A DNA stretch of 64,000 bases from an uncultured delta proteobacterium (GTDB lineage Bacteria > Myxococcota_A > Polyangia > Fen-1088): NCBI GenBank assembly GCA_963737265.1, contig CAVTRY010000011.1:1280001-1344000 (forward strand), written 5' to 3'. Positions 48,485 through 63,988 of this stretch are shown here, one piece after another (within the stretch, counting starts at the first letter, position 1; every line of letters starts with the position of its first letter). Below the pieces are notes generated by a model that saw nothing but the letters and a program-made list of their open reading frames with translations, was not told the origin of the DNA and did no database searches. A program made the position numbers and the translations under genes.

Positions 48485-48865
48485 GTGGCCATATTGACGT
48501 TTCTGCTGGGCGCGGTGCTGCACTCGCTCAACATCATCCTCGGGCCGCAGCGCTTCCTGCGTGACGTGTTTTCCCCTCGTGTGGAGGTGGTATTCGCGAT
48601 GCTCATGATCATCGCGTCGGTGTCGGGCTGGATGTCGTGGAAGCGCTTCACCGGCAATCCGTGGATGCGTGTCGTCTATGGCTTCGCGCTGGTGCTGATC
48701 ACCCTGAGCATTCCGATCCACGTACGCTCGGTGGTCATCTGGAGCACCGCCTGGGTCGGCTCGTTCCCGAAATACTACAGCCACGTCGAGGTGCCGATGT
48801 TTCTCGCGCTGATGGTGCTCGTGAGCCGCCTGCGTTTTCACGGTCCCCCGCATGGCGACGATTGA
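48485..48865 (+). CDS. small 4-TM membrane protein
   Basis: Four hydrophobic segments; start uncertain (in-frame TAG at 48458). Confidence 0.55.
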   Translation: MAILTFLLGAVLHSLNIILGPQRFLRDVFSPRVEVVFAMLMIIASVSGWMSWKRFTGNPWMRVVYGFALVLITLSIPIHVRSVVIWSTAWVGSFPKYYSHVEVPMFLALMVLVSRLRFHGPPHGDD

Positions 48866-48989
48866 CAGCGGCGCGCCGCTATTGCGCCAGCGCGGCCGTC
48901 GCGACCATGAACCACGCGGCGTGTGGGATCCACTGCTCGACCGAGCGCCAGTCGTCGCCGCAGGTGCTATAGGGCGTGAGCCCCGGGCT

Positions 48990-49733
48990 ATGAACATCAC
49001 CTTCGACAGATCGGCAGCGGCATGCGCAAAACCTGCGACCGGTTACACCTATGCCCGCCGGGAGCCGGAAAAGACTGCCCTTTTCCAGGTGCTCCAGCAG
49101 CACCTTCTGACCTTCGCGCAAGAGTGGACCGACAAGTCCGACGGCCGCACGCTGCCCAGCTTCGTGACCGACGAGCTGCACGACTTCCTAGGCTGTGGAA
49201 TCTTGGCGCGAGGCTTCGCGCAACTTTTGTGTAAGACCTGCCACCAGCGGTATGCAGTGGCCTGGAGCTGCAAAGGTCGCGGCTTCTGTCCGAGCTGCGG
49301 CGGCAGACGCATGAACGCGGGCGCCCTGACTCTGGTCGACCACGTCCTGCCCGAAGTGCCCATCCGACAATTCGTGCTGACCGTGCCTTTCTCGCTGAGA
49401 TTTCCCTTGGCCTTCGACGGAAAATTGCTCGGCCAAGTCCTGCGCATCTTCATCGACACCGTGGCGTCCAACTATCGCAGGCGCATGGCAGATCGGGGTA
49501 TTGCCGACGGCGAGTCTGGCGCCGTCACGGTCATCCAGCGCGCCAACAGCGACCTGCGTCTCTCCCCGCATTTTCATGTCCTCCAGCTCGATGGCGTGTA
49601 CGCCCCTGGCCGCGACGGCGGTTCCCCCATCTTCCACCCGGCGCCGGAACTTACCCAAGAGGATGTCCTTGCCATCGTCGAACACACCAGTAAGCGCATC
49701 CTCCGCTTCCTAAAGCGTCGCGGGGTCATCAGC
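48990..49733 (+). pseudogene. IS91/ISCR-like Y2 transposase, N-terminal half
   Basis: Zn-binding CG..C..C..SCKGRGFCPSC, RQFVLTVP, HUH motif PHFH; homology ends at RRGVIS. Confidence 0.85.
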
Positions 49734-49930
49734 CCGCGATGCGGGAACTTGCGTCCGCGCCGCCATCAGCCCATCCGAGGCAGGTGTCGAAATGGATCTC
49801 GGTTCGATCCCACCCCCAGCGTCGAACCGGCCCAAGCGCAGGTGGAAGGCGTTGTCGTCGAATCTCTCGCTGACCTTCGCGCCAACAAGCTGACCTGCCT
49901 CCTCTCCCGCGCGCGGATCCCAACCCGACC

Positions 49931-49965
49931 TTGACTAAGCTAGCCTGTTAATCTAGCCTGTTGTC
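49931..49965 (+). promoter_or_regulatory. putative sigma70 promoter with direct-repeat operator for the TA operon
   Basis: TTGACT-17 nt-TAGCCT ending 6 nt before the ATG; CTAGCCTGTT at 49940 and 49953. Confidence 0.55.
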
Positions 49966-50217
49966 ATGAAGACGAGCGAAGCATCGATGGGCGCCTTCGA
50001 GGCGAAAAACCGATTCTCGGAGCTGATCGAGCGGGTTGGCCACGGCGCCGAGGTCATCATCACCAAACACGACCGTCCCGTGGCCAAGCTCGTTCCCGTT
50101 TCCGCCTCCCTGGATGCGGAACGGCAAAGGGCGACGATCGAACTGCGCGCGCTAAGCAAACGCTACAGCTTGAAGGGCCTTTCTCTTCGCAAACTTGTCG
50201 AAGAAGGGCGCCGGTGA
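49966..50217 (+). CDS. Phd/YefM family antitoxin
   Basis: EAKNRFSELIERV..G.EVIITKHDRPVAKLVP. Confidence 0.93.
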   Translation: MKTSEASMGAFEAKNRFSELIERVGHGAEVIITKHDRPVAKLVPVSASLDAERQRATIELRALSKRYSLKGLSLRKLVEEGRR

Positions 50218-50633
50218 GTCTGGAATTCGTGCTCGATTGCTCGGCCACTTTGCCGTGGCTTTTCGCCTCGGAGGCAACGCCTGCAACCCATCGACTGCTC
50301 AACCAACTCTCCCATGGCGCGAAGGCCTGGGTGCCGAGCCTCTGGCACTTGGAGGTGGGCAACGTGCTCCTGGGCGCGCAACGCCGGGGGCGAGTGGACA
50401 AGGCGGGGATTGAGAAGTTCTTCGCCAGCCTTGCGGTCTACGACATCGAGGTCGACTGCAAAACCGTCGCCCTTGCCTGGTCGAAGACGTTTGCCCTCGG
50501 CGAGACGTTCGGGCTCACAATCTATGATGCCGCCTATCTGGAACTGGCCTTGAGGCGGGGCATTCCACTCGCGAGCCTGGACAAGACGCTCGTCGCGGCA
50601 ACAAAAAAAGCTGGCGGCCGAGTCCTTCTTTAG
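50214..50633 (+). CDS. vapC: PIN-domain VapC toxin
   Basis: FVLDCS, EVGN, LTIYDAAYLELA, LASLD; GTGA overlap with the antitoxin. Confidence 0.92.
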   Translation: MSLEFVLDCSATLPWLFASEATPATHRLLNQLSHGAKAWVPSLWHLEVGNVLLGAQRRGRVDKAGIEKFFASLAVYDIEVDCKTVALAWSKTFALGETFGLTIYDAAYLELALRRGIPLASLDKTLVAATKKAGGRVLL

Positions 50634-51105: not shown

Positions 51106-51330
51106 TCAAGCGACCCGCGCAAGGCGCGATGGGGTAGACCACGCCCCGGTTCCCATGCCCAAGCGTTTTGCTGAACAGATAGAAGATCGAAAACAGCATG
51201 ATTACGATGTGCAGCGCGGTGGAGAACATGCTGGAACCGCGAGCCCACCATCGACTCAGACGGGACCATCCACGTCGGGCGTACCGCTCCGCACGCAACT
51301 TTTTCCGCAACCTGACCGACACGATCAACG

Positions 51331-52887
51331 GTGCATTCCTCAGCGCCGTTGCCCACGTCTGCCCTGGGCGCACGGGTGGCAAAGCCTGGCGTCGAGGGCT
51401 TCGTCTATTCGCGCAGGCAACCCGAGCTGGGCACTCTCCATCGGGTGGTGCGTGAAAACATTCGGACGCTCTACGCCGCCGCCGAGGACGGCTTCGCCGG
51501 GGCCAGGCTGCCCGAGTTCGTGCGCCAGGAGTTTGCAGGGTACTTGGATTGCGGCCTGCTATGCCGAGGCTTTGCAGCGCTCCGATGCGAGGACTGCGGC
51601 GAGCACATGGTCGTGGCGTGGAGCTGCAAGTCGCGCGGATTTTGCCCCTCGTGTACGGGTAGACGAATGGCACAGACCGCGACGAATTGGCTCGAACACG
51701 TGCTGCCAGCAACTCCCCTGCGACAGTTCGTGGTAACTTTCCCCTTCGAGCTTCGCCAGCGTCTGGCCTACGATGGCAAGACCCTCCGCGCGGTCGGCAG
51801 GATCTTCATGGACTCGGTTCTTGGATGGTATCGACGCCGAATGCGCGACGAAGGCATTCGCGACGGCCGCAGCGGTGCGGTCATGGTCGCGCAGCGGAAC
51901 AACGCCGACGTGAAGCTTAACCCGCACCTGCACGCCATTTTCGTCGATGGTGTCTTTGCGACCGTGCCCGACGGCAAGCCGGTCTTCCACGCCCTGCCAC
52001 GCCTCTCGACCGAGGAGGTCGGCGACCTCTTGCAGGTGGTGCGTGCCCGCGTCCTCGCACACCTCGTCCGCCGTGGCATCATCGAGCCTGGCTCCGACCT
52101 GACCGTGCTCGACGACGGCTTCGCCGAGCGCGAGCCGGCCCTGGCCCAGTTGGCCGCTGCCGCCGCGTCTGGCCTGCCGCCTGCTGGCCCCGAGTTGCGC
52201 CGCCGCCCCGAACCCGTGATGCTGCGCGGCCACCCCGGCGTCGAAGTGACAGCGCCCCTTTCCGTCACCGAGTTCGGGTTCTCCCTGCATGCTGCCACTC
52301 GCGCTGGCGCCGAAGACGCTCGTGGCCGCGAAGCCCTGTGCAAGTACGTGCTTCGCCCGCCCCTGGCCCAAGAGCGCCTGAGCCTCCTGCCAGACGGTCT
52401 GGTCCGCATCACGCTCCGCAAGCCTTTCCGAGACGGCACCTACGCCGTCGACATGGATCCGCTCTCGTTGCTTTGCCGTCTTGCCACCACGATTCCTCCG
52501 CCAAGGTTGCATGGGGTGCGCTACTCCGGTGTTCTCGCCCCCGCCGCAAAGCTCCGCCCTCTGATCGTGCCGCTACCCCCGCCTCCGCCCCAGGGCGATG
52601 CCGCCAAACCCGCAAGCACCCCCCCTACCCATCGTTGCGCCTACATCCCGTGTGCCATCCTCGCCAAGAAAACCTTCAAGGAAGACATCGACCGTTGCCC
52701 GAAGTGCGGGGGCAAGATGAAGCTCAAATCGCTGGTGCAGGAGCCCGAGAACATCGCCAGGTTCCTGCGCCACCTGGGAGAGCCGACCGAGCCACCACCC
52801 CTGGCCCCGGCGAGGGCGCCGCCCTACTGGAAGGTTCGCGAGCTGCGCCGCAAGCCCCATGCTCAGACCGATATGTTCCACGCCTAG
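51331..52887 (+). CDS. IS91/ISCR-like Y2 rolling-circle transposase
   Basis: SCKSRGFCPSC, NPHLH, GFSLHA, LCKYVLRPP, RYSGVLAP, CPKCGG. Confidence 0.92.
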   Translation: MHSSAPLPTSALGARVAKPGVEGFVYSRRQPELGTLHRVVRENIRTLYAAAEDGFAGARLPEFVRQEFAGYLDCGLLCRGFAALRCEDCGEHMVVAWSCKSRGFCPSCTGRRMAQTATNWLEHVLPATPLRQFVVTFPFELRQRLAYDGKTLRAVGRIFMDSVLGWYRRRMRDEGIRDGRSGAVMVAQRNNADVKLNPHLHAIFVDGVFATVPDGKPVFHALPRLSTEEVGDLLQVVRARVLAHLVRRGIIEPGSDLTVLDDGFAEREPALAQLAAAAASGLPPAGPELRRRPEPVMLRGHPGVEVTAPLSVTEFGFSLHAATRAGAEDARGREALCKYVLRPPLAQERLSLLPDGLVRITLRKPFRDGTYAVDMDPLSLLCRLATTIPPPRLHGVRYSGVLAPAAKLRPLIVPLPPPPPQGDAAKPASTPPTHRCAYIPCAILAKKTFKEDIDRCPKCGGKMKLKSLVQEPENIARFLRHLGEPTEPPPLAPARAPPYWKVRELRRKPHAQTDMFHA

Positions 52888-53084
52888 CCCAAGCAGCCCG
52901 TAGACCGCGCCGCCCGGGCCGCCGTCTGCCCGAAGACGCCATTGCCGCTCTATGCTGCCGCCCAAGGTGACCAAAACCCTGTCCTCGTCCCCTCCTTCTT
53001 GGGCTCCCTCCCCGGGCTGGCAACCCCGTCCAGGCCCTTCTCACCCGGTTTTCGAACCCTGGCCCCCGCTTGTTTCCCTTACGC
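51331..53084 (+). mobile_element. IS91/ISCR-like element (left end undefined; oriIS-like right end at ~53084)
   Basis: Transposase plus ~200-nt tail ending CGCTTGTTTCCCTTACGC exactly where the neighbouring gene is cut. Confidence 0.65.
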
Positions 53085-53637
53085 GTCCCAAGATTCGCCG
53101 AAGGCCAGCATGGCCTCGTAAAAGGTCAGGTTGTGGTCGGCCGGGATGCCTTCGTTGGCCTTCTTCAAACCCAGAAGAAGCCTTGGCGAGATGCCGTAGA
53201 TGTGGTTCTTCTTGTAGCAATCGTGGTTTCCCGTCACCGCGAACGCCGGTTTGCCTTTGCTCGCGTAGAAGTTCCGGATCGCCGTGAAGAAGGCGATGTA
53301 GTCGACGTAGGATTGGTAGTTGCGTTTGTAGTTGTTGTCGACGTCGACCAGATCCCAGATGGCGGCGGCGCTTGGAGAGCGCAGCTTTTCCGCGCCGACG
53401 CCGTTGTGATAGGGGAAGGCATTGTCGACGTGCTCGATAAGGTCGCCGACGACGAGCAGCACGTCGATGCCCTTGTTGTCGAGGGCATCGAGGATCGACA
53501 GAAATGAACGCTCGAAGGTGTTCATCATCGAGCCGATGACTGGCGATTCCGCGGTTCCGGATTCGGCATCGATCACGCGCGCCGGGGCTTTTGGCCAAGA
53601 GCTTCCAAGTTGCTTCCAAGTCGACGTCAGTACGCAA
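53085..53637 (-). pseudogene. orphan paralogous metallophosphoesterase module, truncated by the IS
   Basis: Collinear with ~56250-56790: KLLA.SPARVIDA.SGT.ESP.IG, GDLIEH, GNHD, HIYGISPR, ANEGIPADHNLTFYE; extra base at ~53585. Confidence 0.85.
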
Positions 53638-54844
53638 TCAGCAGCCAGTCGCCCTCGGTGCTTTGGCCGATGGCGAAGCGGGGGCGCTTGAAGTTGGTGC
53701 GAAACCTTTCTTGCTGTATGCCTTCGATGCCGTACACGACCTGGTCCTTCCTTTTTCGGCCATCCTCGCCGATGCCGACGAAGAGGAAGCATCGCTCGTC
53801 ATGAATCAGAAGAGGTCGTGCCCAGTCCTCGGAGGGGATAAAGTGGGCGAAGCTGCGGAAGCTCACCTTCCAGTTGGTTTCTAGCTTGCGGTTCATGCTG
53901 CGAACCGTGCTTTTGTCCGTTCCCTCATCGTTTCCCGAGGTGAATAGAAAGTCGTTGCCATGCGCATCCAACGGCTCGCTCGCCGGCAGCCACTTGGTCT
54001 CGTGCCGTGTACGAACCAGTCCGATGTCAGACGGCGTTCCAATCGGATTTCCTGCCCCGCTGCTCTCCGTCCAGAACCACTCCCACTTTTCCTTTACTGT
54101 CGAAAACGGCTTCTGCGCAACGATCCTCCCTGCCACGTCCAGCACCGTGGCTGTCGATGGAAAGACCCGGTCGTATCGTCCTGGGGTTCCCTTGTACGGG
54201 TATTGCTCCTGAAACATCTCGAGAATGAACACGTCGCCTTGCTGCGACACATACATTCTCGTATTTTCAGCCAAATAGCATGGTGCGGATGGCGTGTTTT
54301 TGGGGCAAAGATTGCCTTTCCGATTGCGGTCCAATGGTAGTGGCAGGAGCTGCGGCGGGCTTCCATCCAGAAGAAAGTGGTACAGGAACTTCTCGTCAAC
54401 GACCCAAAGTCCGTCAGGTCCGACCCGTGACATCGTGTAGCCGTTTCGACTGACACCAAGGTTGCGTGTTCGACACTTGCGTAGCGTGGCGACGTCCACC
54501 TCGATCACGTTAGCATCCGACGCTACGACCAGCCTGTTGCCGAAGAGATGCGAGGCGTGGATCTCCCCTTCGATTTCGAGTGGCACGCGAGCCAGCTCTT
54601 TGCCCTCCTTGTTCCACCGGACCAGGTCGCGGGCGCCGTCGGGTAGCTTGACCATCGCCACCATCGCCCCGCCAGGCAAAGGCTGTAGCGGTGGAATGAC
54701 CTCGCCCTTCACTGGCCAGCTCATCCTCCAGCCGGTCAGTTCCAGCTTTTGGCTCAGGCCGCGGACTGTGATCTTGTCTTCCTCGGCGTGGATCTCACCT
54801 GCCATCATGGTCAACCCCAAGAACAACGCAATGAATCGGTGCAT
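53627..54844 (-). CDS. exported beta-rich protein, putative immunity protein
   Basis: Sec signal MHRFIALFLGLTMMAGEIHA; 12 nt downstream of the phosphoesterase; function is inference. Confidence 0.7.
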   Translation of the reverse strand: MHRFIALFLGLTMMAGEIHAEEDKITVRGLSQKLELTGWRMSWPVKGEVIPPLQPLPGGAMVAMVKLPDGARDLVRWNKEGKELARVPLEIEGEIHASHLFGNRLVVASDANVIEVDVATLRKCRTRNLGVSRNGYTMSRVGPDGLWVVDEKFLYHFLLDGSPPQLLPLPLDRNRKGNLCPKNTPSAPCYLAENTRMYVSQQGDVFILEMFQEQYPYKGTPGRYDRVFPSTATVLDVAGRIVAQKPFSTVKEKWEWFWTESSGAGNPIGTPSDIGLVRTRHETKWLPASEPLDAHGNDFLFTSGNDEGTDKSTVRSMNRKLETNWKVSFRSFAHFIPSEDWARPLLIHDERCFLFVGIGEDGRKRKDQVVYGIEGIQQERFRTNFKRPRFAIGQSTEGDWLLIAY

Positions 54845-54856
54845 CTGCCCACGGTC

Positions 54857-57544
54857 CTATTGGTAGGTGGAGAATTGCTTCCGCCAGGTCCAGTCTGGGG
54901 CCTCGAACCGGAAGAGATTGGCCATCTCGCCGACCAACGTGCCGTCGTCATTTCGGTTGGGCTGGATTTCGTAGCCTTGCGCGCCGGAGGAAAAGTCGTT
55001 CCAAATCGAAGGCACGGCGTCCACCTCCAGATTCCACCTCGTTTGGTACTCGTAAATATCGTCCAGACCAGCGGCCCCGTGAAAGCCAAAGGACATAAAC
55101 CGCCCCGATCTGGGCCCAAGCTGCAACCAGATGGAAAAGCCGTGAGCCTGTTTTTCGGGCACCTCGAAGACGGCCCTTGCCGCCGTCGATGCCTTGTACG
55201 GATTGTTCCTGTCCTCGTACATGGCCGCCACAAATTCCGTCCGCGTCGTCTCAATCCGTTCCCAGGTCGAGGTCGGGGTTGGACAACAGAATAGAACCAA
55301 GTCATCCATGTCGTTGGCTAAATCGTTGTGAAAGTACTTGCTAAAGGTGATGGTGATACGGTGTCGAATCTGGTTGATCTTCGCCCGTTCGAACGGTTCG
55401 ACCTCAATCTTCTCGAAAACGTGCCTCTTCATCACGTGCATGTAGTCGACGGCCACGGCGAGCCTGGGCTTGTCGCGCTGGGCGCTCGACGGCACCACCT
55501 CGATGTTGGTGACGTGGCCCTCGGCAGACACGCGGGCGATGGTTCCGGACGGACGGTCGCTGCCCCACTCTGCGAACTCGTGGCTGAGATTCAGACGAGG
55601 GAGGGGGCCGGCGCAATCCGAGACGATGATGGGCGTGCGGCCTTTGATCTTGGACGCCGCGTCGGCGACCACGCCGCGGACGAGACGCAGGGCGTGGCCT
55701 TCGGTCGGGTACTGGTGGCCGGTGGGCTGCCCGACGAAATACAGGCCCTTGCGATGCGAGTGACCGGTGATGACCAGGGCCAGATCCTTGCCCGCCGCAA
55801 CCTGGTCGTAGAGCTCTTTTCGCCCTTTTTCGAAAGTACCCAAGTCGTAGTCCGAGTAGGGCTGGCCCTTGCGTATCAGGTGCTGACCAAGAAGGTCGGT
55901 CTCGCCGTTGTCGACTTTTCCAGCGACGGGTTCGTCGCCGCAGGCGATGGTGTCCTTGTAGCTGACCAGCGTGAAATGGGTCATGAGCACGATCTTCTTG
56001 GCGCCGATCGACTTGAGCAGAGTGAGCTGCTGGCTGGTCACCGACTCGTTTGCGCGGCCGAGGTGACCCAAACCCTGCCCTCCCGACCTGACGGACGGTA
56101 GCCAGTTGATCCGCTGCTCGTCCTCGCCCCAGCCCAGCCCCACCAGTCTCTGCTTGGGCAGCTCGAAGCTAAAATCGGAGAAAGGTGTGAACGCGGCATA
56201 AAACCATTCGAACGCGCTTTTCTTCATCAGCGGCAGGCTGCTGGTGTCCGCGTAGGATTCTCCGAAGCTCAAGATAGACTCGTAGAAGGTCAGGTTATGG
56301 TCGGCGGGAATGCCTTCGTTTGCTGCCTTGAGCTGGAGCGCGCGCGGCGAGATGCCGTAGATATGTCTGCCGCCATAGGCGTCGTGATTGCCCGCAATCG
56401 CGAACGCGGGCTTGGCGGTGCAGAAGTCCCGGATCAGCGTGTAGAAGGCGATGAGGTCGACATTCGCTTGGTAGTTCTGGCGGTAGTTGTCATCGACGTT
56501 CACGCGTTTCCACACCGCGGCCGCGCTCTTGGCGAGCTTTTCCTCTGTTTGCTCATCGGTTGGCAGGGGGGAGGCATTGTCGATGTGCTCGATCAAATCG
56601 CCCCCCACGAGCAAGACGTCCAGGTCGTCCCCTTTGCCCTTCATCTTAGCGAGGATCGATACAAGCGAGGAATCGAAGCAGCTCACCAACGTGCCGATGG
56701 CAGGCGACTCCGTGGTTCCGGACGGCGCATCGATCACACGCGCGGGGCTTCTGGCCAAGAGCTTCTGGCGGGCGTTGATGTGGATGTCCGAGACGTGGCC
56801 GTAGCTGACCTCGGACAGGGTCCCCCGTGGATACACATAGAGCGGGTGATAGGCCACGATGCGCTGGTCGAGGTCGACCCGCGAGTAATCCACACCCTCG
56901 CCGTCGAGCTCGAATTCGTGCGTGCCGAAGCCGCCGCTGCCTTGCAGGGCCGGGCCGTTCAGGCGCTTAAAAACCTTGCGTATCTGGAGGTCCTGATATT
57001 CGGAATTCCCTGAACCGTCGTCCGCGCCAGGGCTGCCCGCTCCCTGCGAAGCTGCCGCCAGGCAAGACTCGTGTACCTGGATGGCGTAGAAACCGTCCAG
57101 CTCCTTGGGCAGCCAGTTGGAAACCGTGTCGTGCAGGACGCCACGGAAGATTCCCTTGGTCTTGAGCTGGCCGACTGCATCGCGCTCCACCGGCTCGACC
57201 GCGATCTTGCCCGTGGGATCGTCGAACAAATCGTCGTCCGTCACGCGTTTCTTGGCATCGAGGCCGGGCGCGAATTTGAGGTGGCGGTTTACGTCGTCGA
57301 TGGCGAGAGCGGGCGACTTGGGCGCGGCCACCAGGAGCTCGATCATGCCCTTGTTCTCGCCGCGCACGTGCAGGTTGGGCGTCAGCAGCGAGGGAAACAG
57401 CACCACTGCCGGAATGTTCGGTCGCGTGTCGATGGTGTTGAGGTGCTCGGGGGCGACCTGGAATTTGCCCTGCGACGGATCGGGTCGCGACACGAACGAG
57501 AAGGCTCGCCACACCAGGTTGTAGATATCGGGTTTACTGGCCAT
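54857..57544 (-). CDS. large calcineurin-like metallophosphoesterase, putative effector
   Basis: All five motifs: SDIH, GDLIE, GNHD, THF, GHSH; no signal peptide; RBS AGGA. Confidence 0.88.
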   Translation of the reverse strand: MASKPDIYNLVWRAFSFVSRPDPSQGKFQVAPEHLNTIDTRPNIPAVVLFPSLLTPNLHVRGENKGMIELLVAAPKSPALAIDDVNRHLKFAPGLDAKKRVTDDDLFDDPTGKIAVEPVERDAVGQLKTKGIFRGVLHDTVSNWLPKELDGFYAIQVHESCLAAASQGAGSPGADDGSGNSEYQDLQIRKVFKRLNGPALQGSGGFGTHEFELDGEGVDYSRVDLDQRIVAYHPLYVYPRGTLSEVSYGHVSDIHINARQKLLARSPARVIDAPSGTTESPAIGTLVSCFDSSLVSILAKMKGKGDDLDVLLVGGDLIEHIDNASPLPTDEQTEEKLAKSAAAVWKRVNVDDNYRQNYQANVDLIAFYTLIRDFCTAKPAFAIAGNHDAYGGRHIYGISPRALQLKAANEGIPADHNLTFYESILSFGESYADTSSLPLMKKSAFEWFYAAFTPFSDFSFELPKQRLVGLGWGEDEQRINWLPSVRSGGQGLGHLGRANESVTSQQLTLLKSIGAKKIVLMTHFTLVSYKDTIACGDEPVAGKVDNGETDLLGQHLIRKGQPYSDYDLGTFEKGRKELYDQVAAGKDLALVITGHSHRKGLYFVGQPTGHQYPTEGHALRLVRGVVADAASKIKGRTPIIVSDCAGPLPRLNLSHEFAEWGSDRPSGTIARVSAEGHVTNIEVVPSSAQRDKPRLAVAVDYMHVMKRHVFEKIEVEPFERAKINQIRHRITITFSKYFHNDLANDMDDLVLFCCPTPTSTWERIETTRTEFVAAMYEDRNNPYKASTAARAVFEVPEKQAHGFSIWLQLGPRSGRFMSFGFHGAAGLDDIYEYQTRWNLEVDAVPSIWNDFSSGAQGYEIQPNRNDDGTLVGEMANLFRFEAPDWTWRKQFSTYQ

Positions 57545-57553
57545 GTGTTTTTC

Positions 57554-57724
57554 CTAGCGGGTGGGGAAGCGGGCGCCCGGGCCATAGCTTAGCCCATCGG
57601 CTCGCACGACAAGGTCAGGGGCATAAGAAACTCGTCTGGCTTCGGCCAAGAAGACCGGGTCGATTAGCAGCCGCTGCTCTTCGTCGGTGAGGGGTGGTCG
57701 GGCGGAGGGATTAGGGGGCGCCAT
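57554..57724 (-). CDS. 56-aa small ORF (below the ORF-track cutoff)
   Basis: AGGAG RBS + ATG at 57724; MAPPNPSARPPLTDEEQRLLIDPVFLAEARRVSYAPDLVVRADGLSYGPGARFPTR*; the stop overlaps the next RBS. Confidence 0.6.
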   Translation of the reverse strand: MAPPNPSARPPLTDEEQRLLIDPVFLAEARRVSYAPDLVVRADGLSYGPGARFPTR

Positions 57725-57757
57725 GGGTTCTCCTGCGGGCGGTTCGGCCGTGCCGGG

Positions 57758-58489
57758 TTACCTGCCGTGGGCCGCGTGGAGTGCGGCGAGGAAGTCGTCA
57801 TCGACCACGTCTTGGTCATCCAGCAGCTTGACCCAGCGGAAATGCGCGATGGCGGTGTGGGTGGCATCGTCGGCGTTTCCGTCGATCGGGCCCGTGTAGA
57901 AGCCGAGGTTCTGCAGGCGGGCTTGGATTCCCGAGGTGGTGTCGGACGGATCCAGTCCGCCCACGGCGAAATCGTAGGCAGCAAAGGGCTGGTCGGCGGC
58001 GCTCCCCGCGCGCGAGAGCTCGACGTGGACCTTGCTGGTATCGGGTGGCAAGTCGATTTCCAGTTTTCCGGTCGAAGGTAGCGTGCCCTCCACGGCGCCA
58101 CCGGTGTCAGGGGTTGCCTTGAAGGTGACCGGGTTCTCCTCGCTGCACTTGACTCCGGCGAAGCGCACGCGCAGCACCTCGGCCGCGCCCTGCACGACGT
58201 ATTCAGCCGCGCCACCCGGGACCTCCGCCTCGCGCGCGAGCTTGCTCGGGATGGCGACCTTGTCGCCCGGCAAGAGGATGTGGGCGGTTCCGCGCAACTT
58301 GCGCAGGTCTTCGTTCTTCGCAAAATCCCAAATGGTCTGCCAACGAATGAAGCCATGCGCCCGAGCGATCGTGGGCAACCGGTCGCCTTGCTCGACCGTG
58401 TACTGCGACGCCTCGCTACGCTCGTCCTCGGCCAGATCGAGCGCGCCATCCCCGTCCCAGTCGGCGCCATCGAGGTCGGGGAAGGTCAC
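57758..58489 (-). CDS. LysM + peptidoglycan-binding-domain protein (5' end possibly deleted)
   Basis: YTVEQGD.L.TIA..HG...LLPGDKVAIP LysM; GIQARLQNLGFYTGPIDG PG_binding_1-like. Confidence 0.85.
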   Translation of the reverse strand: MTFPDLDGADWDGDGALDLAEDERSEASQYTVEQGDRLPTIARAHGFIRWQTIWDFAKNEDLRKLRGTAHILLPGDKVAIPSKLAREAEVPGGAAEYVVQGAAEVLRVRFAGVKCSEENPVTFKATPDTGGAVEGTLPSTGKLEIDLPPDTSKVHVELSRAGSAADQPFAAYDFAVGGLDPSDTTSGIQARLQNLGFYTGPIDGNADDATHTAIAHFRWVKLLDDQDVVDDDFLAALHAAHGR

Positions 58490-58523
58490 CGTGAAGACGC
58501 CCGGTGAAGAGCTCGTCGCCCGA

Positions 58524-58656
58524 ACAGCGCGTGGAGGGGACTGAGAGCCTCGTATTCACCCTCGCGACACAGCCGACTGGCATCGAGCCTACCGACCAAG
58601 ATGACCTTGTTCTCGAGTTGCCAAAAAGGCGAGATGCCAAGCGAGGGGCCAAACAT
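58524..58656 (-). repeat. left arm of 133-bp inverted repeat (5' end of a paralog of the OmpA gene)
   Basis: 123/133 nt identical to 59087-59219 by hand alignment; starts at ATG preceded by AAAGGA. Confidence 0.9.
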
Positions 58657-58977: not shown

Positions 58978-59086
58978 TCTACTACCTCCGGGCCGTCGCC
59001 CCAAAAGGCCAGGGGGTTAGGGAAGAACTAGGCGCGGCCAGGCTGGACCAAAAAACAACTTCGTATAGCATGGCGCCATGGATTTG

Positions 59087-59219
59087 ATGTTTGGCCCCTC
59101 GCTTGGCATCTCGCCTTTTTGGCAGCTCGAAAACAAGGTCATCTTGGTTGGCAGGCTCGATGCCAGTCGGCTATGTCGCGACGGCGAATACGAGGCTCTC
59201 AATCTCCTCCAGGCGCTGT
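59087..59219 (+). repeat. right arm of 133-bp inverted repeat
   Basis: ATGTTTGGCCCCTCGCTTGGCATCTCGCCTTTTTGGCA (38 nt) is identical in both arms. Confidence 0.9.
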
Positions 59220-61411
59220 GGGACTTTCGCCGCCTGTGGCCGAGGCCGCCCTGGCGCATGCGGCGCTTCGCCGCCGACGCCCGGCTGTCGAGATTCCCGC
59301 TGTCGTCGCTCGACGATCGCAAAGTGGACGAGCTGATTGAAAGCGCCATCCGGCTCGGCGATTTGGTCGCCATCAGGAAGGTCGACCCGGCCGTGCTTGC
59401 GGCGCGGCCCGTGGATCCAGCCGTGGCGAAGCTGCGCCTGATTCGCGAGATCGAAGCCAAGACCGGCGGGAAGATGACCGAGTCGGGCCGTCACTACCGG
59501 CTGCTGCGCGACATCGACTTCGAAAAGTTCCCCGAGCGCAACTACTACTATGTGGTCCGCCAGGACGAGGCCAAGCAAGTCCTGGACGCCCTGGCCAAAG
59601 GGACCGGCACGTCCGGCGAGCTGGCAGCACTTTTCGCCAAGGCGCGCGACCAAATCACCCGCGACTGGCGTCGGCCCTTTTCATCGCCCGACGGTCTCAT
59701 CCTTCTTCGCCGCGCGCCGGTCGAGCGCGCGCCAGCGAAGGATACCGGACCCGCCATCACGCCGTCGCAGATGAAGGCGCTGCTCGATGCCGAAAAGCCG
59801 GTCACGTTCTTTGCCCGTTTCGTCGACGAGCACGGCAAGGGGCTGTCCGGTTTTACCGGCACGCTGGCGCACGGCTCGGATCCCGATAGCGACTTGGCGT
59901 TTCCCGGCAGCGGATTCGCCAAGGTCACCCTCAAGGGCAAAGCGCAGGCGTGGCTCACCCTGTCGGACGATGCGACCCAGGACTTGGTCGATGCCTTGAA
60001 AGCCCGCTGGAAGGAAATTCGCGGCAAGGTGGACAAGGCGTGGAAAGCGAAGGAAGAAGCGCTGGTCGAAGTGTCGTTCGAGAAGGGCAAGCTGCCCGAA
60101 CTGCAACTGGAAGCCGAGAAGAAGCACACCTTCATGCTCCGGCCCCCCGTGGCGTTGGCGCGCATGCACGGCATGTACTTCGATGCCAACAAATGCTTCC
60201 TGCTGCCCACGGCGATTGCCAGCCTTAAGCGTCTGGTCCAAATCTACGAGCTGCACCTCGATTCGGAGTTGCTGATCGTCGGCCACACCGACACGGCGGG
60301 CTCCGAGGCTTTCAACCTGGATTTGTCCGCCGATCGGGCCGAGGCGATGCGGGCATACCTGCGCGACGACGCCGACACCTGGCTCGCCTGGTGGAACGAA
60401 GGCGTCAGGAAGAGCAAACGCTGGGGCGAGCACGAGGATCTCCAGATGATCGACGCCCTGGTGCCCGACGACCGATTCGGCGACGGCAGTCACGTCAAAG
60501 CTTACCAGAACTGGCACAACGGCGAGGCGCCCGACGCGCGCCAAGAAGACCAGGCACGCGGCCAGCCCGACGGATGGGAAGAGCTGAAAGTCGACGGTAT
60601 CCTGGGACCGAAAACGCGCCGGCAACTGATCCTCGATTACATGAATCTGGCCGGCACGTCGCTGGAAGACGACGTGCGCGTAGTCACCTACGGTTGCGGG
60701 GAATACTTTCCGCTTGAAAGCGAGGAAGGCGAGGTCGATCAAAAGGCCGAGGACAATGAAGAGGTGCAATTCGACCGGCGCGTGGAAGTGTTCTTCTTCG
60801 CCAAACCGTTCGGCATCCTTCCGCCCGTGCCTGGGGTGGCCGACGGCGTGTCGTCGAAGACAGCGACCAAGGCAGCCAAGGGCGACAAGCTGTATCCCGA
60901 GTGGCGGCTGCGCGCATCCCGTTTCCATGCCGTCGAGACCGAGGCCGATGGTTTTCGGTTTCGCTTGTGCGACAGCGACCTTGCGCCCTATGCCAACCGA
61001 CCGTTTGCCTTGTGCCTGGAAGACTATCCCGAGCTTCGCGGTACTACCGACGACGGCGGCTTCGTCATTGTCGACTCGCCGCCGGCGGGTGCGCAAGGCT
61101 ACGTCGAGGTGTGGCCCGACGACGAGCTTCCCGAGGAAACCGTTCGCTGGGAGCTCGGCATCGACGCCATGATTTCGCCCGCAACGCCGCTTGGCGCATC
61201 AACTCGACTGTTCAATCTGGACTACTTCGCCGGCGAGCCGAGCGACGAAATGACGGACGAGCTGCAGGACGCCATCAGTTACTTCCAGGGCGACACCGCC
61301 GGGCTGGAAATTACGGGCGAGCTGGACGACGACACTTGCGCAGGGTTGCGCAACCTCCACGAGTGCGAGCCACTGGCCGCTTCCCCTGGCTCCGAGGAGC
61401 CGACCGGATGA
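59087..61411 (+). CDS. OmpA-C-like + peptidoglycan-binding-domain protein
   Basis: YFDANK..LLP, IVGHTDTAGS..NLDLS..RA, RRVEVFFF; VDGILGPKTR and C-terminal PG-binding-like motifs; no signal peptide; alternative start 59078. Confidence 0.85.
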   Translation: MFGPSLGISPFWQLENKVILVGRLDASRLCRDGEYEALNLLQALWDFRRLWPRPPWRMRRFAADARLSRFPLSSLDDRKVDELIESAIRLGDLVAIRKVDPAVLAARPVDPAVAKLRLIREIEAKTGGKMTESGRHYRLLRDIDFEKFPERNYYYVVRQDEAKQVLDALAKGTGTSGELAALFAKARDQITRDWRRPFSSPDGLILLRRAPVERAPAKDTGPAITPSQMKALLDAEKPVTFFARFVDEHGKGLSGFTGTLAHGSDPDSDLAFPGSGFAKVTLKGKAQAWLTLSDDATQDLVDALKARWKEIRGKVDKAWKAKEEALVEVSFEKGKLPELQLEAEKKHTFMLRPPVALARMHGMYFDANKCFLLPTAIASLKRLVQIYELHLDSELLIVGHTDTAGSEAFNLDLSADRAEAMRAYLRDDADTWLAWWNEGVRKSKRWGEHEDLQMIDALVPDDRFGDGSHVKAYQNWHNGEAPDARQEDQARGQPDGWEELKVDGILGPKTRRQLILDYMNLAGTSLEDDVRVVTYGCGEYFPLESEEGEVDQKAEDNEEVQFDRRVEVFFFAKPFGILPPVPGVADGVSSKTATKAAKGDKLYPEWRLRASRFHAVETEADGFRFRLCDSDLAPYANRPFALCLEDYPELRGTTDDGGFVIVDSPPAGAQGYVEVWPDDELPEETVRWELGIDAMISPATPLGASTRLFNLDYFAGEPSDEMTDELQDAISYFQGDTAGLEITGELDDDTCAGLRNLHECEPLAASPGSEEPTG

Positions 61412-63490: not shown

Positions 63491-63530
63491 CAAAAAAAAA
63501 AAAAACAAGAACGCCCAACACGGAATGGAT

Positions 63531-63988
<458 letters not shown>

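Follow-up and report, generated by a model that had tools for sequence, protein, structure and literature searches.

The question raised by this locus is whether a tight minus-strand gene run in a 64,000-nucleotide stretch of DNA from an uncultured delta proteobacterium (GenBank assembly GCA_963737265.1, contig CAVTRY010000011.1, positions 1,280,001 to 1,344,000; the window hereafter) encodes a polymorphic toxin built on a calcineurin-like metallophosphoesterase (MPE), as an initial annotation had proposed, and by which route such a toxin would reach its target. The window lies on contig C11 of the 6.55-Mb source assembly, in which paralogues were searched for by tblastn and blastn; among named sequences its GlgC is nearest to that of a MAG (metagenome-assembled genome) labelled Polyangia (96%), with Verrucomicrobia as the next named group at ~72%. 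Its two central genes, both on the minus strand, encode P0001 (54857-57544), an MPE of 895 amino acids (aa) and candidate effector of a type VI secretion system (T6SS), and P0002 (53627-54844), a 405-aa exported beta-propeller and candidate cognate immunity protein. The idea of a polymorphic toxin is supported overall, with the T6SS as the likely delivery route, and we consider it probable that P0001 belongs to a family of periplasm-acting T6SS cargo effectors on a binuclear phosphoesterase, which is accompanied by peptidoglycan (PG)-binding/LysM and pentapeptide helpers, is countered in the source lineage by an exported beta-propeller immunity protein and is diversified by module swapping. 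As a T6SS effector-immunity system with orphan arrays it is of a known kind; its toxin fold, helper set and immunity family are new.

P0001 carries all five calcineurin-like motifs (D253-x-H255, G315-D316, G385-N386-H387-D388, H523 and G594-H595-x-H597) and no N-terminal signal peptide was found in it, just as initially annotated; the motifs are invariant in 74/74 aligned homologues. It matches Pfam Metallophos (PF00149) over residues 249-598 with 25.2 bits against a cut-off of 21.5, and the same family is matched by 24/24 members of our alignment A1. The AlphaFold2 (AF2) model, computed with 74 sequences (pLDDT, the predicted local distance difference test, 90.1; pTM, the predicted template modelling score, 0.93), shows a double beta-sheet sandwich that is superposable on solved PF00149 members, and the protein divides into an N-terminal domain (~1-170), a linker (~171-181, disordered at 174-178), an MPE core (~239-690) and a C-terminal domain (~691-895). 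A profile of the 74 homologues matched 0 PDB chains at E values up to 1, and NCBIfam holds no model for either the MPE or P0002; the MPE family counts 131 database homologues. Foldseek searches were made with the whole model, whose MPE core dominates the matches, and ranked SMPDL3A at the top (E 1.3e-7), with Rv0805, Lmo2642, acid sphingomyelinase, GpdQ and purple acid phosphatases also high. Unlike GpdQ (2dxl) and Rv0805 (3ib7), which are class III metallophosphodiesterases, the MPE has a core with large insertions and N-terminal (~240-aa) and C-terminal (~200-aa) domains, and its family lacks a sequence-level match to any PDB chain. The likeness to SMPDL3A/B and acid sphingomyelinase extends beyond the core, as SMPDL3B aligns to residue 830 and so covers part of the C-terminal region; however, sequence identity is 10-12%, there is no saposin or signal sequence, and the context is a bacterial T6SS. 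Alignments with purple acid phosphatase and PhoD cover residues 52-689, and those with Mre11/SMPDL3B reach ~830. As leads from the model, these coverages hint at a purple acid phosphatase-like sandwich in the N-terminal domain and a capping-type domain at the C-terminus.

The same structural ranking could be taken to mean that the T6SS effector acts mainly against eukaryotic or other non-bacterial targets, for example on membrane sphingo- or phospholipids in the manner of acid sphingomyelinase. SMPDL3A/B and acid sphingomyelinase stand at the top of the Foldseek list, some carriers of the family are predatory or soil Myxococcota, and several loci have no adjacent immunity candidate. We nevertheless regard a mainly eukaryote-directed effector as quite improbable, and return to the periplasm-acting effector that we favour.

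The locus is present three times in the assembly, in the window and on contigs C12 and C23, and among its alleles a conserved N-terminal region is joined to divergent C-terminal modules, which is the arrangement of polymorphic toxins. Residues 1-238 are the same in all three MPE proteins (100% identity), and here the DNA of the window is 99.2-99.4% identical to that of C12 and C23. Compared with C12, the window allele falls from 99.2% DNA identity over codons 1-238 to 67% over codons 239-438, 59% over 439-690 and 58% over 691-895; between C12 and C23, in turn, identity is 97.5-100% as far as codon 690 and 65% past codon 721. The enzyme module of the window is closer to that of a metagenome relative, L017 (92% and 88% of nucleotides), than to its in-genome paralogues, and its N-terminus is only 77.5% identical to that of L017. 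This mosaic of identities across C11, C12, C23 and L017 requires recombination at ~codon 238 and at ~codon 720. In the diverged segments the ratio of nonsynonymous to synonymous substitutions (dN/dS) is 0.11-0.38, and the modules therefore evolve as working proteins.

The partner follows the same pattern. The gene for P0002 starts 12 nucleotides (nt) past the P0001 stop, and the signal peptide that had been noted in its product is indeed present as a Sec-type leader (MHRFIALFLGLTMMAGEIHA/EED). Six P0002 paralogues were found in the genome, all of them with a Sec leader and conserved ends and with 41-81% mutual identity. P0002 matched no family in Pfam, NCBIfam or PADLOC; its AF2 model is an all-beta propeller (pLDDT 83.9), whose top Foldseek matches are the propellers of BamB and of the clathrin terminal domain, and its ESM Atlas matches are unnamed or PQQ/BamB-like clusters. 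Homologues of P0002 number 49, every one of them at least 37% identical, and the database records suggest that several adjoin the closest MPE homologues. In 10 toxin-partner pairs (45 comparisons) the identity of the partners was correlated with that of MPE residues 691-895 with r=0.95, with that of residues 439-690 with r=0.86, with that of residues 239-438 with r=0.26 and with that of residues 1-170 with r=-0.10. Thus a divergent partner lies directly downstream of the toxin gene and co-varies with the toxin module, and the clearest case is that of C12 and C23, whose enzyme cores are nearly identical, whose C-terminal domains are 68% identical and whose partners are 52% identical. When MPE residues 691-895 were co-folded with mature P0002, with both entered as alignments and no controls, the score was 0.00, a value that counts neither for nor against binding.

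Downstream of the toxin genes we found arrays of 5'-truncated toxin fragments and immunity-type genes. On C23 the main MPE and partner 1 come first; next is a fragment that begins at codon ~806 of the MPE gene, then an orphan that runs from MPE codon 437 through to the stop, and after these partner 2, a fragment of codons ~806-871, partner 3 (cut by an insertion element), a gap and partner 4. The array on C12 is similar; each orphan partner gene on these two contigs is preceded by an MPE fragment that begins at ~codon 806, or at 437 in the one long orphan. Two metagenome loci show comparable pieces, an MPE 3' end with a partner gene and then an MPE lacking residues 1-181 in L023, and an MPE fragment after the partner gene in L020. 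Several insertion elements interrupt the MPE/partner arrays on C12 and C23. The layout of toxin, immunity gene and N-truncated orphan, which had been suggested from the window, therefore holds on a broader footing, with three loci of identical 5' ends, swapped 3' modules and partners of their own, fragment arrays on C23 and C12, and metagenome orphans. Rhs, CDI (contact-dependent inhibition) and MafB loci carry orphan toxin-immunity arrays, and the MPE loci resemble them in having a conserved 5' region, a swapped 3' module with its cognate gene, and downstream arrays of 3' fragments and immunity-type genes. They differ from them in lacking the Rhs/YD shell, haemagglutinin repeats and DUF1020, and in that what is exchanged is not a small toxin tip but the greater part of a large enzyme, or its C-terminal domain, with one fold in all variants.

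The orphan in the window itself proved to be something other than what had been annotated. It had been taken for a second phosphoesterase, a diverged copy of its neighbour that starts at motif I and overlaps the partner's stop codon. Instead, it is a stump of 525 bp (53081-53605, minus strand), recognised by DNA identity and junction alignment as codons ~261-434 of the C12/C23 allele; its DNA identity is 98.9% with C12:255981-256505 and C23:252907-253431 (codons ~260-434) and only 70% with the window's own MPE gene. Its homology begins 22 nt past the P0002 stop, at ~codon 261 and hence after motif I, so that motifs II and III only are retained; it contains a 1-nt insertion, and the overlap with the partner gene arises by mechanical extension of the open reading frame (ORF) only. 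The stump terminates exactly at the end (~53087) of an IS91-family element (51260-53087, plus strand), which truncates the orphan module and whose transposase ORF (51331-52887) matches Pfam Y2_Tnp and Zn_Tnp_IS91; many copies of this element, ~99% identical, occur in the genome, all with the same end point. From the extent of the fragment, its frameshift and the IS91 cut it follows that the stump is a dead orphan-module remnant and not a functional gene. The stump of the window ends at codon 434 and the C23 orphan starts at 437; that the two are halves of one cassette is unproven, and no IS91 end was found just upstream of the C23 orphan, where the stretch matches an unrelated one on C19.

A similar correction applies to the genes upstream of P0001. 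All ORFs of the five-gene minus-strand run (58489 to 53079, the last of them a mechanical 237-aa ORF at 53079-53792) are present as originally described, but three of the five are remnants, and only the 895-aa MPE and its 405-aa partner are intact. This becomes evident from C23, which has the only complete copy: its PG-binding protein has 531 aa, its pentapeptide-repeat protein 368 aa and its MPE 876 aa, and a P0002 paralogue is encoded there as well. The first gene of the window run had been called a LysM/PG-binding gene; its 243-aa product (57758-58489, minus strand) does pass the Pfam cut-off, for PG_binding_1/2 only, but LysM stays at 14 bits, under the cut-off of 20.9, and the ORF is the 3' part of an internally deleted, adaptor-like 531-aa gene, being 100% identical to residues 278-531 of the C23 protein. 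Codons 4-52 of the same gene are kept in a different frame at 58516-58656 (minus strand; tblastn, 94% over 49 aa), and are followed by codons 278-531; in the window and on C12 alike ~codons 53-277 are lost and the 5' leftover is out of frame. The 56-aa small ORF (57554-57724, minus strand) is likewise present, and is the in-frame remnant of the 368-aa gene, which matches Pfam Pentapeptide_4 on C23. It consists of the first 31 and last 26 codons of that gene (1-31 and 343-368, by codon match), the 312 codons between having been deleted in frame in both the window and C12, as a 936-bp gap in the DNA alignment. The window copy has kept enzyme and partner intact but has lost both helper genes, and IS91 has cut its orphan. 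In this state the copy may no longer be deliverable, and it may be a stranded or decaying one.

The delivery route was approached through 63 related loci, 9 from species-representative genomes and 54 from metagenomes; the 77 neighbouring proteins in the 9 loci were scanned with Pfam, and all 63 were searched by tblastn with the components. T6SS core genes (VgrG, TssB, TssC, Hcp or PAAR) were present in 16/63 loci, and in 13/30 when loci of at least 10 kb are considered, so that the linkage to be expected of a cargo effector is found in relatives. A pentapeptide gene stands beside the MPE in 35/63 loci, a PG-binding gene in 27/63 and either of them in 44/63. By Pfam, the gene order is ClpV-VgrG-PG_binding-MPE-pentapeptide in L015 and PG_binding ... 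MPE-pentapeptide-ClpV-TssB-TssC-Hcp-VgrG in L009, and in L012 a PAAR gene and a gene for an OmpA-like giant protein lie upstream; LysM-MPE fusions also occur among family members. Members with T6SS genes come from Latescibacterota and Planctomycetota metagenome-assembled genomes (MAGs), and those without adjacent core genes from Myxococcota and one Pseudomonadales MAG. Downstream of the MPE, or of the MPE-pentapeptide pair, there are lipobox proteins of 341-470 aa in L031, L038, L039 and L059, and, in L027, L035 and L056, mutually homologous proteins of ~140 aa with a signal peptide. The homologues thus adjoin T6SS genes and variable exported proteins and not the housekeeping genes that would have spoken against a toxin. 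Tle phospholipases with their Tli immunity proteins are periplasm-acting T6SS cargo effector-immunity pairs, and the MPE loci are like them in that the enzyme has no signal peptide, lies beside vgrG/PAAR in relatives, is directly followed by an exported protein and is preceded by adaptor-like genes. Unlike in Tle/Tli, the fold is that of a binuclear calcineurin-like phosphoesterase and not an alpha/beta-hydrolase or PLD, the helpers are PG-binding/LysM and pentapeptide proteins, and the MPE family is without a characterised member.

The helpers themselves point in the same direction. Residues ~240-300 of the PG-binding helper resemble a C-terminal extension of VgrG, the C-terminal part of PAAR and small stand-alone proteins beside the MPE, and its ESM Atlas matches are solely unnamed or PG_binding clusters. 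Its N-terminal domain recurs in the first ~235 aa of a divergent 777-aa protein with OmpA and PG_binding_1 matches in Pfam (59078-61411, plus strand), which lies upstream of the run (81% identity over 237 aa). Other genes of the genome that carry this N-terminal domain adjoin an Imm71/Imm72-type protein, a DcrB (Eag-like) protein and a PLD fragment, neighbours that are again typical of an effector locus.

PMC13373197, PMC13584744 and PMC7714669 describe pentapeptide-repeat proteins, namely TvpB and TagAB, as accessory factors of the T6SS spike. One may ask, then, whether the pentapeptide protein, the PG-binding protein and the MPE form a non-toxic accessory or spike-support complex, in which the enzyme remodels the envelope of the producer or fills a baseplate cavity and P0002 is an unrelated periplasmic factor. 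In L009, L034, L042 and L055 the triad is embedded in the core T6SS cluster, with PAAR-like genes on one side and clpV on the other; many loci have no evident immunity gene; and spike support by pentapeptide proteins is documented (PMC13373197). Against such a complex, the catalytic motifs are invariant in 74/74 homologues, the enzyme, being devoid of a signal peptide, has no evident route into its own periplasm, and module swaps and fragment/partner arrays are hallmarks of effectors with immunity proteins and not of structural parts. Moreover, the resemblance to Tvp and TagAB (PMC13373197, PMC13584744) is confined to the pentapeptide-repeat gene in T6SS spike/effector neighbourhoods; unlike in Tvp, the constant partner is the MPE, and among the 77 neighbouring proteins of the 9 loci there was no DUF2169 (TvpA) and no DUF3540 or DUF6484 (TvpC) partner, the sole DUF6484 match being sub-threshold (24.5 vs 27.6 bits) and inside a VgrG. 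We consider an accessory role of this kind unlikely, and a cargo effector carried with its helpers remains the interpretation that we pursue.

Several observations weigh against a T6SS effector with exported immunity and must be set beside it. T6SS core genes were absent from the fetched DNA in 47/63 loci, many of which are short contigs. A P0002-type gene occurs in just 7/63 loci, all with MPEs that are at least ~40% identical; the signal-peptide and lipoprotein calls for the exported proteins of the other relatives were made by eye and with a crude hydrophobicity rule; and in the Enhygromyxa loci L010 and L011 no obvious exported gene was seen downstream. Physical linkage alone could yield part of the correlation between partner and C-terminal domain. 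The N-terminal domain was considered as a promiscuous trafficking domain and rejected as such, since a HMMER search with residues 1-245 over 1.84 billion representatives gave 75 matches, almost all of them MPE proteins of ~850-1000 aa; a domain so nearly confined to the MPE family does not count among the recognised promiscuous domains of T6SS trafficking. The contamination estimate of the assembly is 7.6%, which together with an implausible poly-T run near the end of the window means that the three loci might stem from closely related strains and not from one cell, an origin that would not weaken the argument from polymorphism. Finally, no vgrG, PAAR or hcp was found near any of the three in-genome MPE loci, the nearest VgrG being ~330 kb off on C11 and none lying on C12 or C23. 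Orphan effector loci are common, and the missing linkage in the source genome therefore does not exclude an effector function.

This last observation is also what a conflict system independent of the T6SS, be it anti-phage defence or a toxin using another secretion route, or else an ordinary envelope phosphoesterase operon, would have in its favour, along with the divergent OmpA-like neighbour, which weakly matches the ZorB/MotB type through its OmpA domain. The source genome, however, contains TssC and PAAR genes, two of each, as well as several VgrG genes (VgrG matches on C21 and at C11:984-1003 kb, PAAR matches on C21) and no phage-type sheath gene; none of the four proteins (MPE, P0002, helper and pentapeptide protein) matched a PADLOC model of known anti-phage defence; linkage to T6SS genes is found repeatedly in different phyla; and an enzyme with no signal peptide makes a housekeeping periplasmic role unlikely. 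We judge these alternatives to be very improbable and take the T6SS cargo effector as the frame for what follows.

The secretion, toxicity, substrate, immunity and partner binding that we infer would then fit together in the following way. The ancestral operon, which is intact on C23 and in the close relative L017, encodes a ~530-aa helper, a ~370-aa pentapeptide-repeat protein and the ~900-aa binuclear MPE; in the helper, LysM and PG_binding_1 come after a small beta domain that VgrG and PAAR proteins also have at their C-termini, and the pentapeptide-repeat protein is of the sort that supports T6SS spike complexes. The enzyme would be carried on the VgrG/PAAR spike into the periplasm of a neighbour and anchored there at the peptidoglycan by the helper, where it would cut a phosphodiester or phosphomonoester in an envelope component, most plausibly a phospholipid head group or a lipid-linked cell-wall precursor. 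In the source lineage the producer would be shielded by exported P0002, which probably reads the C-terminal domain of the enzyme. Diversity arises by recombination at ~codon 238 and ~codon 723, through which either the enzyme module or the C-terminal domain alone is exchanged together with the candidate immunity gene, and orphan cassettes of an MPE 3' fragment and a partner gene are kept downstream. A more far-reaching version, which we put forward as doubtful, is that of a multi-phylum T6SS family with a new antibacterial chemistry, in which a spike-loaded three-part complex, made up of the PG-binding/LysM adaptor with a VgrG-like connector domain, the pentapeptide beta-helix and the ~900-aa phosphoesterase, sits on the peptidoglycan of the victim, the enzyme cleaves a phosphodiester-linked molecule of the envelope, for instance lipid II, a phospholipid head group or an undecaprenyl-PP intermediate, the propeller immunity protein reads a capping-type C-terminal domain, and domain and immunity gene are swapped together.

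To our knowledge, the characterised T6SS effectors are mainly peptidoglycan hydrolases, lipases, pore formers, nucleases and enzymes that target NAD(P) or nucleotides. The earlier remark that no polymorphic toxin of the calcineurin-like type has been characterised agrees with our search of the openly accessible full-text literature (subscription papers being outside its scope), in which no calcineurin-like phosphoesterase was found as the basis of a T6SS effector or polymorphic toxin. Should the MPE prove toxic, contact-dependent killing would have a new envelope target and a new pairing of immunity fold and toxin; the family would also offer a clean natural case of domain-level exchange of toxin/immunity cassettes, and its conserved pentapeptide and PG-binding partners would amount to a new solution for the loading of large cargo effectors.

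Some further observations concern the helper and the enzyme. The ~235-aa N-terminal domain shared by the helper and the 777-aa protein (59078-59788 in the window) belongs to no family and occurs at least five times in the genome, including L071, L072, L073 and L074. A fourth helper-type gene, in L004 (G000:C11:487652-491128), encodes a 455-aa protein that is 52-57% identical, with PG_binding_1 and an acidic tail, and is followed, in place of the MPE, by a gene whose 702-aa product matches no family and may represent another cargo of the same helper. Longer family members of 1268-1455 aa occur in L016 (7760-12127), L030, L044, L047 and L052, and the extra N-terminal part of the L016 protein is similar to the OmpA-like protein of 1172 aa encoded after PAAR in L012. 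A 538-aa metagenome protein, P0072, was considered as a fusion of the N-terminal domain to a MafB19-type deaminase toxin, and this assignment was rejected, as it consists in fact of MPE residues 182-471 and a dCMP-deaminase/MafB19-type domain. P0072 and the L023 orphan share their start residue (~182). Either a natural replacement of a module or an artefact of assembly could account for P0072, and as a single metagenome case that begins at a contig edge it was not used as evidence.

The surroundings of the run are marked by mobile DNA. The genome is very rich in insertion elements, and the window holds IS91-family transposase genes at 48852-49934 and 51331-52887 (both plus strand), between which lies a type II toxin-antitoxin pair (49966-50633, plus strand), where the gene for an 83-aa PhdYeFM antitoxin precedes that for a 139-aa PIN-domain toxin. 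Another element, 2.5 kb in length, has more than 20 copies in the genome, one of them beyond the window at C11:1350918-1353419, and an ORF in its C23 copy matches Mu-transposase/rve domains. Near the end of the window there is a poly-T run of ~450 nt (63533-63986) with a short poly-A just before it (~63492-63505); the run is almost certainly an assembly or read artefact, and because of it the last kilobase has 30% GC and an AT skew of -0.57.

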